A stretch of DNA of 64,000 nucleotides from Minisyncoccota bacterium (GCA_035546615.1 DASZWM010000003.1:92902-156901), one strand, 5' to 3'; counted from the first letter of the stretch, positions 1,090-56,268 are shown. Numbers and translations: made by a program. Notes: generated by a model not told the origin, from the letters alone.

Positions 1090-1381
1090 CTTTCTGTATT
1101 ATCTTGCGGACGACGTTGTACTCGCCTTCGCGCCTGGGAAGGGCCGTCAGGAGCGCCTCGCGCTTTTCCGCCATAGGGTCGCCCCCTTCGCGCGGCATAT
1201 CCGCGCGCATACTATTGCGGTTCTGCGTTGACGCCTCTGCACCCTCGGCCGACACGGAGGCCACTTGCCCCACATAATCGAGGATAGAAGAGATATCCTT
1301 CTGCAAAACGGCGGCTTCACCCTCGCTGAGGGTTAGGCGCGCCAGCTGGGCCAAATTTTGCACCTCGTCCCTCGAAATCAT
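1082..1381 (-). CDS. gatC: Glutamyl-tRNA(Gln) amidotransferase subunit C
   Basis: 99-aa ORF with typical GatC N-terminus (ISRDEVQNLAQLARLTLSEGE), overlaps gatA start by 8 nt (gatCA arrangement). Confidence 0.8.
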   Translation of the reverse strand: MISRDEVQNLAQLARLTLSEGEAAVLQKDISSILDYVGQVASVSAEGAEASTQNRNSMRADMPREGGDPMAEKREALLTALPRREGEYNVVRKIIQKDE

Positions 1382-1467
1382 GAGCTTATTGTCTAGCGGA
1401 GCGAGTGAAAAGTAAAGCTTGCTTTCTTTTACGAGCGGAGCGACGACAATATCCGGGCCTTGCCCGG

Positions 1468-3483
<2,016 letters not shown>

Positions 3484-24621: not shown

Positions 24622-24694
24622 GGGCGTGTAGCTCAGTTGGTAGAGCAGCCGACTTATACTCGGCCGGTCCCAGGTTCGATCCCTGGCGCGCCCA
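24622..24694 (+). tRNA. tRNA-Ile with anticodon UAU (decodes AUA)
   Basis: Manual cloverleaf: acceptor GGGCGUG/CGCGCCC, D-arm GCUC/GAGC, anticodon stem GCCGA/UCGGC, loop CUUAUAC (U33, anticodon UAU, A37), T-loop GGUUCGAUCC. Confidence 0.7.
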
Positions 24695-24768
24695 CAAAAT
24701 ACAGAAACACCTGCCCTGCGGCAGGTTTTGTGCTACTGTTGTGCGGGTTCATTAACAGGGAGGGCGCG

Positions 24769-32702: not shown

Positions 32703-33221
32703 TTGGATACTACTCGAATCAACCACCAGATCCGCTCTGCAGAGGTGCGCGTTATAGGCCCCGAAGGCGAGAACTTCGGCGTCCTGGCCCTTTCCGAGGC
32801 CATACAGCGGGCTTCCGACGTCGGTTTGGACCTTATAGAGATCTCCCCTAACGCCGTTCCCCCGGTTGCAAAAATAATGGAATATGGTAAATTCCAATAC
32901 GAACAGGCCAAAAAAAGGCGGGAAATGAAGGCCAAATCCCACGTTACCGAGACCAAGGGGGTCCAGGTAAAGATAGGGACCGGAGACCACGACCTCAACC
33001 TGAAGGCCCGAAAGGCAGCCGAGTGGCTGGCCGAAGGCCACCGGGTGAAGGTCGACCTGTTTTTGTGGGGGCGGTACAAGTACATGGAGTTCAACTTCCT
33101 CAAGGACCGCTTGGAGCAGTTCCTCAAGCTCATCCCGGAGGAGTACAAGATAGCCGAGCCGATAGGCAAAAGCCCGAAGGGGCTCAGCGCGGTGCTTGAG
33201 CGTGCGGCAAAGGGCAAATAG
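32703..33221 (+). CDS. infC: Translation initiation factor IF-3 (non-AUG start; true start between 32685 and 32703)
   Basis: RINHQIRSAEVRVIGPEGENFGVLALSEAIQRASDVGLDLIEISPNAVPPVAKIMEYGKFQYEQAKK; in-frame stop at 32661 leaves only AUA/AUC/UUG candidates. Confidence 0.8.
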   Translation: MDTTRINHQIRSAEVRVIGPEGENFGVLALSEAIQRASDVGLDLIEISPNAVPPVAKIMEYGKFQYEQAKKRREMKAKSHVTETKGVQVKIGTGDHDLNLKARKAAEWLAEGHRVKVDLFLWGRYKYMEFNFLKDRLEQFLKLIPEEYKIAEPIGKSPKGLSAVLERAAKGK

Positions 33222-33304
33222 CCAGATACTATAGAACGAGGACGTTATATAATCGTCTCGCTGCAGAATCAAAAACAAGTTTTTGTTCACTCACTCGCTA
33301 GATT

Positions 33305-33505
33305 ATGAAAACCAACAAGTCATTTACGAAGCGCCTCAAAATCACCCGTACGGGGAAGATTATCGCGCGCAAGCCCGGCCAGGACCATTTCAACGCCAAG
33401 GAGCGCCGCTCAACCCAGATGGACGGCAACCGCTCCCAGGCCCTTTCCCTTACCCCGAAAGTGTCCCAGCGCTACATCGGCACCGCTTCTAAATCCCGCA
33501 ACTAA
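33305..33505 (+). CDS. rpmI: 50S ribosomal protein L35
   Basis: 66-aa basic protein, infC-rpmI-rplT order. Confidence 0.85.
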   Translation: MKTNKSFTKRLKITRTGKIIARKPGQDHFNAKERRSTQMDGNRSQALSLTPKVSQRYIGTASKSRN

Positions 33506-46392: not shown

Positions 46393-46929
46393 CTATTTCT
46401 TGAATGGGAAGCCGAGGTGTGTGAGATATGCTTTCGCTTCGTCCTTGTTCTTGGCGCCCGTCACAACCGTGACCGACATGCCGAAGACATCCTTAAGCTC
46501 CTCGTCGGCGGTCTCCGGGAATACCGTGTTCTCCTTGATACCAAGCGTGTAGTTGCCCATCTCGTCGATAGCGGAAGTCTCGATACCCTTGAAGTCCTTG
46601 GTGCGAGGAAGCGCGATGTGCACGAGGCGGTTGAGGAAATCCTCAGCGCGCTTGCCGCGCATCGTTACCTGGTAGCCTATCTTGTCGCCCACGCGGGTCT
46701 TGAAGGTGGCGATGGCCTTCTTGGCGGCGCGGGGAGCCGGCTTCTGTCCGGTTATCTTCTCCAGCCGATTGGCGATGAGCTCGATCTTGTTCTTATCTTT
46801 GGTTGAGCCGGTACCAACGGAAATAACTACCTTCTCCACCTTGGGGGTCTGCATGACATTCACCCACCCAAGAGTGCCCTTGAGCTCCGCGAATGCCGTC
46901 TTCTGCTGTTCTTGAATGAGTTTAGCCAT
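46393..46929 (-). CDS. rplE: 50S ribosomal protein L5
   Basis: typical L5 sequence. Confidence 0.9.
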   Translation of the reverse strand: MAKLIQEQQKTAFAELKGTLGWVNVMQTPKVEKVVISVGTGSTKDKNKIELIANRLEKITGQKPAPRAAKKAIATFKTRVGDKIGYQVTMRGKRAEDFLNRLVHIALPRTKDFKGIETSAIDEMGNYTLGIKENTVFPETADEELKDVFGMSVTVVTGAKNKDEAKAYLTHLGFPFKK

Positions 46930-46937
46930 GGTGGTGG

Positions 46938-47029
46938 ATTATTATCTAGCGAGCGAGAGAAATGAAAACTTGTTTTCATTTCCGAGCGAGCGACGATAAT
47001 ATAAATTTTTCATAAAATTTCTATTTCTT
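46938..47029 (-). repeat. 92-nt AT-rich intercistronic element (copy 1) between rplX stop and rplE start; contains perfect 11-bp hairpin
   Basis: 88/92 nt identical to 49598-49689; gaaatgaaaac-tt-gttttcatttc stem flanked by direct AGCGAGCGA repeats. Confidence 0.6.
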
Positions 47030-47248
47030 CGGACCGACGTTGCTGGCGTGTATCGGGAAATGCTTGTCGATTATCTGGCCCTTCTGCCCTTCGCGGCGGG
47101 GCTTCTGGTGCTTCTTGCGCATGCCCACACCCTCAACGAGCACGAGGCCAAGCTTCGGGAAGGTCTTTACGACCCTGCCGCTCTTGCCCTTCTCGTTGCC
47201 CGAGAGGACCGTTACCGTATCGCCTTTTTTTACATGCATGGTATTCAT
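47021..47248 (-). CDS. rplX: 50S ribosomal protein L24
   Basis: KOW motif MHVKKGDTVTVLSGNEKGKSGRV. Confidence 0.85.
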   Translation of the reverse strand: MNTMHVKKGDTVTVLSGNEKGKSGRVVKTFPKLGLVLVEGVGMRKKHQKPRREGQKGQIIDKHFPIHASNVGPKK

Positions 47249-49252: not shown

Positions 49253-49594
49253 TTATTGGGCTTTCGCGGCCTTGCGGGAAAGGGCGAGGGTGATATGACT
49301 GGACTTCTTGCGTATCGGGGACGAGCTGCCGCGGGCGCGGGGCATGGAGCGCTTGAAGACGATGCCGCCGTTCACCTGGATGCTTGAAATGTAGAGCTCG
49401 GAGGCCGCAACATCCTTGCTGTTTGCAATAGCGGACTTAACCAGCTTTGCCATCGGGTCGGAGCCGCGCTTCGGGAGCGTGGCAAGAAGCGCGAGCGCGC
49501 GCTCGACGGACTTGCCGCGGATGAGGTCGGCAATGAGGCGCACCTTGCGGGGCGACTGGCGGTAGTTCTTGAGTGATGCGGTTGCGTCTGACAT
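49253..49594 (-). CDS. rplV: 50S ribosomal protein L22
   Basis: typical L22 sequence. Confidence 0.9.
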   Translation of the reverse strand: MSDATASLKNYRQSPRKVRLIADLIRGKSVERALALLATLPKRGSDPMAKLVKSAIANSKDVAASELYISSIQVNGGIVFKRSMPRARGSSSPIRKKSSHITLALSRKAAKAQ

Positions 49595-49597
49595 ATA

Positions 49598-49689
49598 ATT
49601 ATTATCTAGCGAGTGAGAGAAATGAAAACTTGTTTTCTTTTCCGAGCGAGCGACGATAATATAAATTATTCATATAATTTCTATTTCTT
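49598..49689 (-). repeat. 92-nt AT-rich intercistronic element (copy 2) between rpsS stop and rplV start
   Basis: 96% identical to 46938-47029; begins at KK* stop of upstream gene, ends 3 nt before ATG. Confidence 0.6.
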
Positions 49690-50052
49690 GCCTGCCGGAG
49701 CGCCAGCCTTGCCGCCCGCCGCATCAGCCGCAGCCTTGGCCGCGCCCGCTGCCGCGATCTCGGCCTCCTTGGCCTTGGTCTCCATCTCCTTCTGCATCTT
49801 GCCGCCGTGGCGCTGGAACTTCTTCGTGGGAGAGAACTCGCCCAGGCGGTGCCCGACCATGTCCTCGCTCACGAGCACCTCAACGTGCGTCTTGCCGTTG
49901 TGGACGCCGAACTTGAAGCCGACCATTTCGGGGGCTATCTGGCTGCGGCGCGCCCACGTCTTAATAAGCTCAGATCCTTGAGCTTTTTTGCCCTCAATCT
50001 TCTTGAGGAGCTTTTCGTCTACGTATGGTCCTTTTTTGAGGCTGCGTGCCAT
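49681..50052 (-). CDS. rpsS: 30S ribosomal protein S19 with Ala/Lys-rich C-terminal extension
   Basis: S19 core [13 protein letters not shown]...HNGKTHVEV; ~35-aa tail. Confidence 0.85.
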
Positions 50053-51984: not shown

Positions 51985-52704
51985 TTATTTCTTTACCACC
52001 TTCTTAGCGCCCAAGGTCTCCATAGCGGCGGCCGGCTCTGCAATGATGAGGTACTTGCTGGAGAGGACCGATACCGGGTTCAGGTTGCGCACCTCCACCA
52101 TCTCGACATTACCGAAGTTCTGGAAGCTCTTCTGCGTTGCAACATGCACGCGCGGAATAGCGATAAGCGCGGCGTTCTTTGCCTTCGAAAGGCCGGAGAA
52201 GGTCTTGCCGAGCGCTGCAAGGAGTATCTTGGCCTGTGCGGTCTTCGGGCTGCTCAACTCAAGCGAGTCTATAAAGAGCACCTCCCCGTCCTTGTACTTG
52301 CGGGAAAGGGTCACGAGGAGCGCCTTCTGGCGGGCCTGGCGGTTTATCTTCTGGGCGTAGATCTTCTCGTTGCGAGGACCGTGGGTAACGCCGCCGCCCT
52401 TCCATATAGGAGAGCGCGAGGAGCCATGGCGGGCGCGGCCGGTGCCCTTTTGCTTCCAAGGCTTCTTGCCGCCGCCGCGAACCTCGCCCCGGTCTTTAGT
52501 ATGAGCGACCGGGCCGCGAGCATTGGCCTGCATCGCGGTAACCACCTGGTGCACGAGGTCGGCATTCCAAGGAAGTCCGAAGATGTTCTCCGGAAGCATG
52601 AAGGTGCCGGCCGACTTGCCGTCCTTGTTGAAGACGGAAGCCTCCATCTTGTTGCCGGCCGGAGCGGCCTTCTCTACTTTCTTTGTTTTGGTAGTGGTAG
52701 CCAT
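51985..52704 (-). CDS. rplD: 50S ribosomal protein L4
   Basis: typical L4 sequence. Confidence 0.9.
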   Translation of the reverse strand: MATTTKTKKVEKAAPAGNKMEASVFNKDGKSAGTFMLPENIFGLPWNADLVHQVVTAMQANARGPVAHTKDRGEVRGGGKKPWKQKGTGRARHGSSRSPIWKGGGVTHGPRNEKIYAQKINRQARQKALLVTLSRKYKDGEVLFIDSLELSSPKTAQAKILLAALGKTFSGLSKAKNAALIAIPRVHVATQKSFQNFGNVEMVEVRNLNPVSVLSSKYLIIAEPAAAMETLGAKKVVKK

Positions 52705-52709
52705 AAAAA

Positions 52710-53342
52710 TTATGATGTTGCAGCAGTGCCGCGGATCTCAACTACCGTACCGCGGCGGCCGGGAACGGCGCCTGCGAGAACGAGCTCGTTGGTCTCGGGA
52801 AGTATCTGGAGTATCGGAAGGTTGCGGACGGTTACGCGGTCAGAACCCATGCGGCCCGCCATGCGCATGCCCTTGGCAACGCGGCCTCCCGCGCGGCCGC
52901 CTGAGCCGCCTATGGAGCCCGGTGCGCGCTCGGAGTGCTTCTGGCCGTGGGAGCGAGGACCGCCGTGGAAGCCGTGGCGCTTAACGACGCCCTGGAAGCC
53001 GCGGCCCTTGGAAATAGCCGAAACGGTTACCTTCTCCCCTACTGCGAATGCGGAGAGGTCTACGACTGCGCCGACCTCAACATCTGCCGCGCCGCCCTTG
53101 AGATTGATCTCGCGGAAATGGCGGAGCGCTTTGCCCTTCGTGTGGCCCATCTGCGCCTTGCTGACGTGCTTGGGGGTCGTCTCGACGCCGCCGATCTGGA
53201 CTGCGGAATAGCCGTCCTTCTCCACCGTCTTTATCTGGGTTACCAGGTTAGGAGCGGCGTTTATGACGGTAGCGGCAAAAGCCTGTCCCTCTTCGGTATA
53301 GACAGTAGTCATTTTGCCCTTTGTTCCAAGGATGAATTTCAT
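52710..53342 (-). CDS. rplC: 50S ribosomal protein L3
   Basis: typical L3 sequence. Confidence 0.9.
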   Translation of the reverse strand: MKFILGTKGKMTTVYTEEGQAFAATVINAAPNLVTQIKTVEKDGYSAVQIGGVETTPKHVSKAQMGHTKGKALRHFREINLKGGAADVEVGAVVDLSAFAVGEKVTVSAISKGRGFQGVVKRHGFHGGPRSHGQKHSERAPGSIGGSGGRAGGRVAKGMRMAGRMGSDRVTVRNLPILQILPETNELVLAGAVPGRRGTVVEIRGTAATS

Positions 53343-53359
53343 AACTTAGCGTAGTGAGT

Positions 53360-53383
53360 GAGAAGAAAATGTATTTTCTTCTC
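53360..53383 (-). promoter_or_regulatory. Leader hairpin (11-bp stem) 17 nt upstream of rplC start
   Basis: gagaagaaaat-gt-attttcttctc flanked by AGTGAGTGAG / GGAGCGAC. Confidence 0.4.
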
Positions 53384-53493
53384 CGAACGGAGCGACAGTT
53401 ATATCGGGGGATTTTCCCGCTATGTTGTCTGTAGGTCCCTCTGCTTGGCCCAAGGCCTGGGACGCGGATCAACTCTTATGTAGAGTCCCAAAG

Positions 53494-53522
53494 AATATAC
53501 ATCAGAGCCTTAATTTATGCAA
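53494..53522 (-). promoter_or_regulatory. Sigma-70-type promoter TTGCAT-N17-TATATT for rplC-rplD-rplW-rplB
   Basis: minus-sense TTGCATaaattaaggctctgatgTATATTcttt at edge of AT-rich island. Confidence 0.55.
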
Positions 53523-53544
53523 ATAGTGATGATAAACTTAGTAT

Positions 53545-53961
53545 ATGAACATTTTTGAGATAATTGGATTTATATTTCTTATAAGTGCCTTTTTAATGGG
53601 ATTTGGTTATAATTTATTTACAGATTTCCTTTGGTTTAAATGGCTGCATAAGTGGGTGCCTGAGCAATTCCGAGAGCGTAAAAACATTCAAAAACCTTTT
53701 TCTCTTATGGCTTCTGAATATTTCAAAAATAACTTCTTTGCATTTACTAGTCCCTCAAATCCTCCTGATCCAATGTTTCAAAGGCCTCTTACCCTTCTAC
53801 TTCCTATGATCTTAACCGTTGTTAGCTTGATGATAGCTGGCATATCATTGGTTGAGGCTCCATTTTTTGAATGTCTTATAGGCGTAATTGTTTTTCTCGC
53901 TATTAGTCTGTTCTTTATAGTACGTCTAGCAAAAAGACAGATCAAAAACCATACTTGGTAG
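53545..53961 (+). CDS. Hypothetical 138-aa membrane protein encoded in AT-rich island
   Basis: AT-rich codon usage distinct from host; 3-4 TM helices; hairpin gcctcatc-aaaaat-gatgaggc downstream. Confidence 0.5.
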   Translation: MNIFEIIGFIFLISAFLMGFGYNLFTDFLWFKWLHKWVPEQFRERKNIQKPFSLMASEYFKNNFFAFTSPSNPPDPMFQRPLTLLLPMILTVVSLMIAGISLVEAPFFECLIGVIVFLAISLFFIVRLAKRQIKNHTW

Positions 53962-54210
53962 AAAATAAGGGCAAGAATAAAGCCTCATCAAAAATGATGA
54001 GGCGGATGGGGAGGGAGAGGAGGGTGGGGAAAAAAGAGAAGAAAGAACTAGATGGAATGATGGAGTGGGAGAGCGTGTAAAAACAGAGGCTCAGGAAGGA
54101 TGCGAGAGTACCGTAAGCGAGCGCGCTATATGGTTTCCCATCGCAGACCTCCGCTGTCAGTCAGTCCGTTTATGAGAACCGGGCACGACGCAAAAGGTTA
54201 CATACACGAA

Positions 54211-54234
54211 AAGGCCTCCGCGCGGAGGCCTTTT
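54211..54234. terminator. Palindromic GC hairpin with flanking A/T runs (possible bidirectional terminator, end of candidate sRNA)
   Basis: gaaaaggcctccg-cgcggaggccttttcg. Confidence 0.4.
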
Positions 54235-54420
54235 CGTTCCAATTTCTTTGCTCAGCTTGCAGAGTGTGCCCTGTGGGCTGCAAACGGAACAAAAAACCCG
54301 ACCTATAGTTCGGGCGAAATTAACGCCTATGTGTCGCGACTAAAGGACAAAACCGTACTGAGCGTCTTGTTCTAAGTATATGAATTGCTCATCTTTAGTC
54401 AATAAAATTTTCCACAAAAA

Positions 54421-54448
54421 CAAAAACTCCCGCCGAAGCGGGAGTTTT
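54421..54448 (-). terminator. Rho-independent terminator directly downstream of rpsJ
   Basis: minus-sense aaaaactcccgc-ttcg-gcgggagtttttgtttttgtgg. Confidence 0.6.
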
Positions 54449-54492
54449 TCGAATGCCATTCTTTTTGATTTGTAAAAATGTCCTAGCTAACG

Positions 54493-54870
54493 CTATGCCA
54501 TTTTTACGTCGATAGTGACACCGGAAGGAAGTGAGAGGTTCGTGAGAGCCTCGATGACCTTGGCAGACGGATCGAGGATGTCGATGACGCGCTTATGGAT
54601 GCGCATCTCGAACTGCTCGCGCGCGTCCTTGTAGACGAAGGTCGAGCGGTTGACCGTGTACTTCTTTATCTCGGTCGGCAGCGGTATCGGGCCTGCGACC
54701 TTCGCGTCGTAGCGAAGCGCGGTGTCGAGTATCTGCTTGATGCTCGCATCAAGCACCTTGTGCTCGTACGCGCGGACCTTGATGCGAAGGCGCTGGACTG
54801 CGGCCGGGGCGGCTGCGCGGCGTGCGCGCTTAGGAGCTGCTTTCTTCTCTGCTATTGGTTCGGTAGCCAT
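54493..54870 (-). CDS. rpsJ: 30S ribosomal protein S10 (with ~25-aa basic N-terminal extension)
   Basis: [25 protein letters not shown]... Confidence 0.85.
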
Positions 54871-54881
54871 ACTTTTTTATT

Positions 54882-54902
54882 GGCAGACAACGAGTTGTCT
54901 GC
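54882..54902 (-). promoter_or_regulatory. Leader hairpin 12 nt upstream of rpsJ start
   Basis: gcagacaac-tcg-ttgtctgc followed by AAUAAAAAAGUAUG. Confidence 0.35.
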
Positions 54903-55013
54903 TTTGAGTCTAGTTCTCCTGTTCTCCAGGTAACCTATACTCGGTTAGCTTACGCTTACAGATAATGGGAACGCTCATCACTATGGCCTAGATTACGAAT
55001 AATTGCAACACGA

Positions 55014-55038
55014 AAAAGTCCCGCCTACGCGGGACTTT
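55014..55038 (-). terminator. Rho-independent terminator after tuf
   Basis: minus-sense aaaaagtcccgc-gtag-gcgggactttttcg. Confidence 0.65.
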
Positions 55039-55071
55039 TTCAGCAACGTCTTTTTGATTTAAAATTGTTGC

Positions 55072-56268
55072 TTAAGCAACAATTTTCGTCACAACGCCTG
55101 CACCGACGGTCTTGCCGCCCTCGCGAACCGCGAAGCGGGTCTGCGCCTCGAGCGCAACCGGCGCCGTGAGCTTGACCTTGAAGGTGATGGTGTCGCCCGG
55201 CATGACCATTTCTACGCCTGCCGGAAGGGTTACCTCGCCGGTAACGTCGGTCGTGCGGATGTAGAACTGGGGCTTGTAGCCGGTGAAGAACGGCGTGTGG
55301 CGGCCGCCCTCCTCCTTGTTGAGGACGTATACCTCGCCCTCGAACTCGGTGTGGGGGGTAACGGAGCCGGGCTTCGAAAGCACCTGGCCGCGGTGGATGT
55401 CATCCTTGGCGGTACCGCGCAGGAGAAGGCCCGCGTTGTCGCCTGCCTGGCCCTGGTCGAGCTGCTTGTTGAACATCTCGATGCCGGTAATGGTTGTCTT
55501 TGCGGTCGGAACGAGGCCGACGATCTCGACTTCCTCGCCTACCTTGATGACGCCGCGCTCGATGCGGCCGGTAACCACCGTGCCGCGTCCTTCTATAGAG
55601 AAGATGTCTTCAACCGGCATAAGGAACGGCTTGTCGAGCTCGCGGGTCGGCATCGGGATGTAGGTGTCGAGCGTGTTTACGAGCTCAAGCACCTTCTTCG
55701 CCCACTCGTCGTCGAGGGTCTTTGCTTCAAGAGCCTTGAGGCCCGAGCCGCGGATGACCGGAGAGTCGGTGTAGCCCTGCTTCTTGAGGAGGTCCTTCAC
55801 TTCCTCTTCCACGAGGTCTACGAGGTCCTTGTCGTCGACCATGTCCACCTTGTTGAGGAAGACGATGATCTTCGGCACGCCGACCTGCTTGGCGAGGAGG
55901 ATGTGCTCGCGTGTCTGGGGCATTGCGCCGTCAGTCGCGGCAACCACGAGGATGGCGCCGTCCATTTGGGCGGCTCCGGTGATCATGTTCTTGATGTAGT
56001 CCGCGTGGCCCGGAGCGTCGATGTGGGCGTAGTGGCGGTTCGGCGTCTCGTACTCCGAGTGGTGGAGCGCGATGGTAATGCCGCGGGCCTTTTCCTCGGG
56101 AGCGTTGTCGATGCCGTCGACGGCCTCGACGCGCGCGCCGTAGCCCTGGCCCTTAGCGAGGTCGAGCACGTGGAGAATCGACGCGGTAAGCGTCGTCTTT
56201 CCGTGGTCGACGTGACCGATGGTGCCGACGTTTACGTGCGGCTTTGTCCTGTCAAATGAATCTGCCAT
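55072..56268 (-). CDS. tuf: Elongation factor Tu
   Basis: [19 protein letters not shown] motifs; 398 aa. Confidence 0.95.

Follow-up and report, generated by a model that had tools for sequence, protein, structure and literature searches.

The boundary between the ribosomal protein genes rpsJ and rplC in a Candidatus Paceibacterota MAG carries a foreign segment of 448 bp with a single gene, which is missing at a precisely matching empty site in the closest relative found, the metagenome contig L086. Judged by parsimony and composition, which supply the polarity of the change, this AT-rich segment is a horizontally acquired single-gene insert, and the rplC promoter and leader beside it are, judged by their conservation, ancestral and not donated by it. 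The explanation as a whole, in which a low-GC fragment integrated at the boundary between two transcription units and the ancestral promoter was kept, is in our view highly probable.

Organization of the rpsJ-rplC region

The window referred to throughout is the whole stretch of 64,000 nucleotides that was analysed, with positions counted from its first letter. The best matches of its ribosomal proteins are to Paceibacteria/Patescibacteria MAGs throughout. The gap between rpsJ and rplC measures 1150 bp (53343-54492) and contains several modules besides the insert. The features of the region, in the direction in which the ribosomal genes are read and with the basis of each assignment in brackets, are as follows.

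55072-56268, minus strand: tuf (ORF list, Pfam)
54493-54870, minus strand: rpsJ, ribosomal protein S10, last gene of the tuf-rpsJ unit (Pfam Ribosomal_S10, E 4e-32)
54422-54449, minus strand: T1, the intrinsic terminator downstream of rpsJ, with a stem of 12 bp and a T-run behind it (terminator scan and inverted repeat)
54206-54402, minus strand: module absent from L086, comprising promoter-like site P2 TTGACT-16-TATACT (54402-54375), about 165 nt of hairpins and terminator T2 (54206-54237) (promoter scan 10/12, palindrome, L086 alignment)
53975-54205, minus strand: host non-coding segment common to L086 (L086 1817-2038), with 78% identity over 240 nt
53971-53974, GCAA on the plus and TTGC on the minus strand: distal copy of a 4-bp repeat (manual junction comparison with L086)
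53523-53970, plus strand: inserted foreign segment, 448 bp, 33.5% GC (empty L086 site, GC, tetranucleotide z)
53545-53961, plus strand: orphan membrane-protein gene of 138 aa, NCBI hypothetical protein VHD55_02025, antisense to the ribosomal genes (ORF, shuffles, homologues)
53510-53538, plus strand: weak candidate promoter for this ORF, TTAATT-17-TGaTAAACT (7/12 plus TG in the scan; absent from a stricter scan)
53494-53522, minus strand: rplC promoter, evidently ancestral, TTGCAT (53522-53517), 17 nt, (TG)TATATT (53499-53494) (promoter scan, conservation)
53424-53487, minus strand: rplC 5' leader with hairpins H1 (53487-53471) and H2 (53463-53435) (13-sequence alignment)
53343-53423, minus strand: 81-nt repeat element between the leader and the rplC ATG (alignments, nhmmer, covariance-model searches, covariation)
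52710-53342, minus strand: rplC, ribosomal protein L3, first gene of the rplC-rplD... unit (Pfam Ribosomal_L3)
51985-52704, minus strand: rplD (ORF list, Pfam)

An empty site delimits the insert

The rplC and rpsJ genes of L086 are 86% and 90% identical to those of the window, and the gap between them is 354 bp long. By blastn and alignment, this gap matches window positions 54206-53971 (78% identity) and then jumps straight to 53522-53422; the intervening 448 bp are missing and TTGC is present in a single copy, an empty site with contiguous flanks. In the window, a 4-bp direct repeat (TTGC on the minus strand, GCAA on the plus strand, 53519-53522 and 53971-53974) flanks the insert, although at this length it could be coincidental. 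Its proximal copy coincides with the first four positions of the -35 hexamer of rplC, and the insert edge at 53523 sits 1 nt upstream of the -35. Written on the operon strand and with a slash at the insert edge, the L086 junction reads …GATACGGCTTTTTC TTGCAT ATTTT…, the distal junction of the window …GATGAGGCTTTATTC TTGC/CCTTATTTTCTACC… and its proximal junction …ATCATCACTAT/TTGCAT AAATT…, while a synthetic empty site in the window version reads …GGCTTTATTC-TTGC-ATAAATT…. Between its two edges the insert consists of the ORF and 31 bp of non-coding DNA, 22 bp of it 5' and 9 bp 3' of the gene. A 13-nt direct repeat, CTTAGTATATGAA (53537-53549 and 54372-54384), was ruled out as the island boundary because the L086 alignment places the edges at 53523 and 53970.

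A sequence-only reading of this DNA had described an AT-rich island of about 620 bp at 53478-54095, and on recalculation the composition is indeed far from uniform. The interval has 36.4% GC against a window mean of 58.7% (sd 3.9%, 618-bp windows) and is the GC minimum of the window, the next-lowest 618-bp window having 47%; the flanking genes rplC and rpsJ have 61.9% and 59.3%. Tetranucleotide usage, which that reading had named as a check, agrees: the distance of 53523-53970 from the window reaches z = 6.9, a value equalled only by overlapping windows. As a cassette, however, the interval was drawn too widely. It is a composite of the ancestral promoter (53478-53522), the insert (53523-53970) and host DNA common to L086 (53971-54095), and the part that appears to be acquired, as indicated by the empty L086 site, the GC3 of the gene and a survey of 160 related loci, is 53523-53970; the rest is host sequence. 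The hairpin that had been counted with the island downstream of the gene is likewise present, at 53982-54003, but belongs to the host, because it is conserved in L086 with compensatory changes in its arms (GCCTCATCA/TGATGAGGC versus GCCGTATCA/TGATACGGC). On the operon strand, this hairpin and the T-run that follows it end the host segment in a terminator-like structure, the L086 counterpart of which directly abuts the rplC -35.

The gene carried by the insert

To judge from shuffled sequences and homologues, the 138-aa ORF is a real gene. It was recognized already in the sequence-only reading as a multi-TM protein on the opposite strand, and hydropathy places three hydrophobic segments at approximately residues 3-26, 82-103 and 107-128. 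A stop-free run of 139 codons, as found here, was reached in 1 of 5000 shuffles. A word-based search of 5.8 billion proteins returned the ORF itself as the only family member. An exhaustive HMMER search of 1.84 billion representatives found only two homologues, both full-length: P0002 (156 aa, 33% identity to the ORF, E 3e-18) and P0003 (142 aa, 28% identity, E 1e-10). The three proteins have the motifs WxxK[WF][VL]P, NPPDPxF and RLAxWQ[IL]..xW-end, with a C-terminal Trp in common. A comparison with phage, plasmid and CPR databases, proposed along with the first description of the protein, thus yielded distant homologues and no phage or plasmid: no real match, and no donor or vector, came up in PLSDB plasmids, in IMG/VR viral contigs or in INPHARED phages searched as protein and as DNA. 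The family had no significant hit in Pfam, PHROGs, NCBIfam or PADLOC either, and a PDB sequence search gave only noise (E ~0.2).

The AlphaFold2 model, built from an alignment of three sequences, is unreliable (pLDDT 55, pTM 0.30) and its helices belong to a low-confidence model, so the topology rests on hydropathy and the positive-inside rule. They predict that the N-terminus faces outward, that a basic loop of about 55 aa lies in the cytoplasm and that the C-terminus, also basic, is inside. Class I holins are alike in their similar size, three predicted helices, N-out/C-in orientation and basic C-terminus, but the protein differs from them in the 55-aa basic loop between TM1 and TM2, in having no adjacent endolysin or lysis genes and in matching no holin family of Pfam, PHROG or NCBIfam; the likeness is a superficial resemblance only. 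We infer that the product is an accessory envelope protein.

The candidate promoter of the ORF is a hybrid: the -10 lies within the insert, the -35 in the host DNA that forms the spacer of the rplC promoter. The ORF points away from rplC and would probably be weakly transcribed from this promoter, which overlaps that of rplC; transcription is predicted to start near the A of the ATG, which would make the mRNA leaderless or nearly so. The transcript may end at the pre-existing hairpin at 53982-54003, which has no U-tract on the plus strand, or at the palindrome at 54206-54237, a good terminator in both directions. Two further ORFs, one of 91 aa on the plus strand (54100-54375) and one of 41 aa (53955-54080), were rejected as genes because they read through terminators; the frame of the second is also not kept in L086.

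It is conceivable, though unlikely, that the insert matters mainly as DNA, rather than through its protein, and is retained for that reason. As an AT-rich, possibly curved segment with a divergent, overlapping promoter, it would retune ribosomal-protein expression, acting as an UP-like element or as a competitor directly upstream of the rplC -35. Such a role would suit the start of the insert 1 nt upstream of the -35 and the best candidate ORF promoter with its -35 within the rplC promoter spacer, as well as the T-rich terminator tail that lies at the equivalent position in relatives; however, the intact frame and the conserved protein motifs argue for present or recent selection on the protein, and a neutral insertion at a permissive site fits the data equally well.

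A recurrent insertion site and the probable mode of integration

The region upstream of rplC was surveyed in L001-L080 and L086-L165. Among the 127 related loci with both genes, the rpsJ-rplC spacer has a median of 99 bp; it is 50 bp or shorter in 40 loci and at least 400 bp long in 23, and in 10 further loci rpsJ is missing within 2.5 kb or more. What the long spacers carry is mutually unrelated and includes a MazF/PemK toxin (L046), an RVT_1 reverse transcriptase (L043), a Bac_transf sugar transferase (L048), an Aminotran_4 class IV aminotransferase (L051) and PaaX_M/Cas2-like proteins (L087-L089). Orphan ORFs are found at the junction as well, several of them AT-shifted relative to the host (L017, L025, L053). 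When tested for kinship with the 138-aa ORF, the other junction ORFs proved unrelated, and tblastn of the non-coding parts of the gap, as possible relics of the junction genes of relatives, gave no significant match. Insertion at the rpsJ/rplC boundary is recurrent in Paceibacteria. At the place equivalent to T1, relatives have a terminator too, and since the junction in this clade is a terminator-promoter boundary, insertions leave the transcripts unbroken.

The history that we propose begins with the S10 cluster of this lineage split into two transcription units, tuf-rpsJ, which ends in a terminator, and rplC-rplD..., which would have been driven by a separate promoter (CTTGCAT-17-TGTATAnT) followed by a structured leader of some 65 nt. 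The donor of the 448-bp fragment would have been low in GC, most probably a different Patescibacterium or a mobile element of one, and the fragment would have integrated exactly at the unit boundary, between the terminator hairpin and the -35 hexamer. A 4-bp TTGC duplication or microhomology at the junctions would have regenerated the -35, and the essential operon would thereby have kept its own promoter. Gene transfer among Patescibacteria is reported to be frequent (PMC12455944).

Microhomology-mediated illegitimate integration of taken-up DNA would fit the junctions better than a transposon, an integron or a phage, because a 4-bp identity is found there without signatures of a mobile element. 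An inverted-repeat scan found no inverted repeat pairing the insert ends at 53523 and 53970, and no transposase is present in the insert, the sole ORF of which encodes the membrane protein and has no transposase domain. No attC site, integrase, attI or prophage context was found at the insert or at the neighbouring tuf, rpsJ, rplC and rplD. Compared with an IS element or MITE, the insert thus lacks both terminal inverted repeats and a transposase. The TTGC repeat around it, at 4 bp, would be as compatible with a target-site duplication as with microhomology or chance. Integron cassettes and phage morons resemble it as single-ORF units between a terminator and a promoter; in contrast to integron cassettes, however, it has no attC-like imperfect palindrome (9 bp follow the stop codon) and no nearby attI/IntI, and in contrast to morons it has neither a prophage context nor a match to PHROGs or viral contigs.

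Microhomology-mediated illegitimate integration, also described as homology-facilitated or double illegitimate recombination, is known from Acinetobacter and Streptococcus, which are naturally competent bacteria. The present case is similar in its short insert, the 4-bp microhomology at the junction and the lack of a recombinase signature, and the host phylum carries type IV pilus and competence genes. It differs from the known cases in that the mechanism is read from the junction sequence of the recipient. Within the CPR, competence is reported for Saccharibacteria (PMC10187176, PMC10633639). It is not known from Paceibacteria.

The 448-bp unit might instead be a minimal non-autonomous single-gene mobile cassette, moved between Patescibacteria genomes by a trans-acting recombinase that targets terminator/promoter boundaries or the TTGC(AT) of the -35 and leaves 4-bp duplications. 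We consider such a cassette quite improbable and favour illegitimate integration of a foreign fragment.

Gain, loss or artefact

In a comparison of two genomes, exact loss from the L086 lineage of the DNA between the 4-bp repeats gives a picture equivalent to insertion, since deletion between the two TTGC copies leaves the exact L086 sequence. The ORF would then be ancestral at the site and lost from L086 and other relatives, and its low GC would stem from local constraint or from amino-acid composition, membrane proteins being rich in Phe, Ile and Leu. This is very unlikely. GC3, which is independent of amino-acid content, is 30% in the ORF compared to 71-83% in six host genes, and the codon preferences of the ORF are opposite to those of the host. 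The ORF is moreover absent from 13 out of 13 close relatives and from about 150 more distant ones, no homologue having been found in 160 related Paceibacteria loci. Finally, the homologue in contig L082 lies at another locus and is 33% identical, compared to 63% for RecG.

For one of the two homologues of the ORF (~30% identical), P0002, usable genomic context is available. Groundwater contigs (L082-L084) carry it directly behind tRNA-Ser(GCU) and a GIY-YIG gene of 80 aa. The window and L082 are syntenic, with equal gene order and 63% amino-acid identity in RecG, yet P0002 occupies a locus different from that of the ORF; it too is low in GC (45% versus 55.5%; GC3 43% versus 64%). Because of the different locus and an identity of only 33%, the relationship between P0002 and the ORF points to independent acquisitions rather than vertical descent.

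A block of low GC (44-48% versus 55-59%) extends over positions 7063-8471 of L082 and contains a DUF5652 gene, the 80-aa GIY-YIG gene, tRNA-Ser(GCU) and P0002; it looks like a tRNA-associated islet.

The acquired segment in the window appears to combine the properties by which genomic islets and ORFans are recognized, namely deviant composition, an empty orthologous site and patchy, non-syntenic homologues. It is like them in the deviation of both AT content and codon usage, in its absence from the orthologous site of relatives, in the sparseness of its homologues, in having no detectable function and in its position at a transcription-unit boundary, where insertion harms little. It differs from them in being exceptionally small (one gene and 31 bp of non-coding DNA), in having no integrase, tRNA target or mobility gene, in lying within the highly conserved S10/spc cluster and in a junction within a -35 hexamer that was regenerated by a 4-bp repeat. 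The insert is therefore best described as an AT-rich orphan-gene islet at a permissive intergenic site, an ordinary acquisition that is unusually cleanly delimited.

An assembly chimera, or a chance open frame in non-coding AT-rich DNA, might be suspected where the source is a MAG and the first word-based search returned no other family member, but is scarcely credible given an independent Logan assembly (contig L081, SRR12170516; reads possibly the same as those of the MAG) that is 100% identical over 53314-54235 and spans both island junctions, the collinearity of both flanks with L086, the rarity of such a frame among shuffles and the two full-length homologues. Exact-sequence look-ups of the rpsJ and rplC products of the window, for strain variants with or without the island, gave no match.

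The rplC promoter and leader

Thirteen relatives without the ORF (L001-L004 and L086-L094) were compared upstream of rplC, and in most of them the promoter, as CTTGCAT-N17-TGTATAnT, recurs together with the two-hairpin leader. CTTGCAT or TTGCA- is present in 11 of the 13, as is a TATAnT -10 box; partial exceptions are L090 (no TTGCAT), L091 (aberrant -10) and L092 (TTGCGC). In L001-L004, the species representatives that are closest (rplC 72-76% identical), the gap spans 158-334 bp, and in it a terminator is followed by TTGCA[TGC]-N17-TGTATA[TG]T and then by a leader that aligns to window positions 53522-53424. This conservation in relatives without the island argues that promoter and leader are ancestral and were not donated.

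The sequence-only reading had correctly located the near-consensus promoter TTGCAT-17-TATATT, which is in addition TG-extended, and had proposed that the island brought it in and that it now drives rplC-rplD-rplW-rplB. A good consensus match at the AT-rich left edge of a low-GC interval made this attractive, but the proposal is hardly tenable in view of the identical -35, spacer length, TG-extended -10 and leader in island-free relatives and of the L086 homology breakpoint, which lies upstream of the -35. The counter-proposal made at the same time, that an ancestral leader of low GC is conserved upstream of rplC in all relatives, describes the promoter and leader well and does not apply to the ORF insert.

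In the 13-sequence alignment, 4 of 10 base pairs of the leader show compensatory changes. An Rfam scan of 53000-55200 matched no ribosomal-protein leader family even at E <= 1, the only hits at that threshold being sub-threshold ones to rsmX, rnk, Phe_leader and istR that are driven by terminator hairpins. The segment 53424-53487 is a candidate ribosomal-protein autoregulatory leader.

The motifs of the leader are GACTCT…AGAGTT in H1 and GTCCC…GGGAC in H2, followed by CAATAGACAAC-ATG. It is seen upstream of rplC in L001-L004, L086-L088 and L090-L094.

Other elements of the gap and the window

Conservation of the host segment at 53975-54205 (about 230 nt) is confined to the window and L086. Some 100 nt within it form a tract that reads pyrimidine-rich and CCTCC-rich along the operon strand and purine-rich along the plus strand, and the reading frame is not kept in L086.

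The module at 54206-54402 contains four hairpins (fold z = -3.8) and ends in T2, a perfect 32-nt palindromic bidirectional terminator. It has no plausible ORF, and its matches to Rfam families are all below threshold and terminator-driven. This module is a candidate self-contained small RNA gene.

The 81-nt element between the leader and rplC is an insertion relative to L086 and is absent from all other relatives. It is one of five repeat copies in the window.

53343-53423, minus strand: repeat copy
49592-49690, minus strand: repeat copy
46927-47030, minus strand: repeat copy
1379-1486, minus strand: repeat copy
33216-33315, plus strand: repeat copy

The copies, of about 65-100 nt, lie directly upstream of the start codons of rplC, rplV, rplE, gatC and rpmI in the orientation of these genes. 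Each folds into a rod-like stem-loop, the outer stem of which abuts or includes the ATG; this stem varies yet stays complementary (ATAACT/AGTTAT, ATTGTC/GACAAT, ATAATC/GATTAT, ATTATC/GATAAT), and compensatory changes are seen in 8 of 21 pairs. A covariance model of the repeat picked out these five copies alone in the window and had no hit in 645 kb of sequence from relatives, and the rplC copy, the sole one scanned against Rfam, gave no match. The repeat may be a lineage-specific cis-regulatory or mobile 5'-UTR element.

Both the window (24622-24695, plus strand) and L082 (2166-2240, minus strand) have a tRNA-Ile with anticodon TAT beside recG. Such a tRNA is an uncommon way for bacteria to read AUA.

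Implications

The interruption of the S10/spc ribosomal cluster in Paceibacteria can be followed here at base-pair resolution, and the insert is a clean natural example, from a CPR bacterium, of foreign DNA integrated where the junctions share no more than 4 bp. Its gene adds a tiny new membrane-protein family of three among 1.84 billion cluster representatives. The locus also serves as a caution in annotation and binning: an AT-rich block in a ribosomal operon is not necessarily a misassembly, and a good promoter found at an island's edge is not necessarily the island's own. Should the mobile-cassette reading prove true after all, rpsJ/rplC would be a platform on which accessory genes (orphan membrane proteins, MazF, reverse transcriptase) are captured beside one of the strongest promoters of the cell. 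For the Paceibacteria, the finding means that foreign accessory genes are tolerated, and gathered time and again, where the terminator of rpsJ meets the promoter of rplC, while the essential promoter is preserved.
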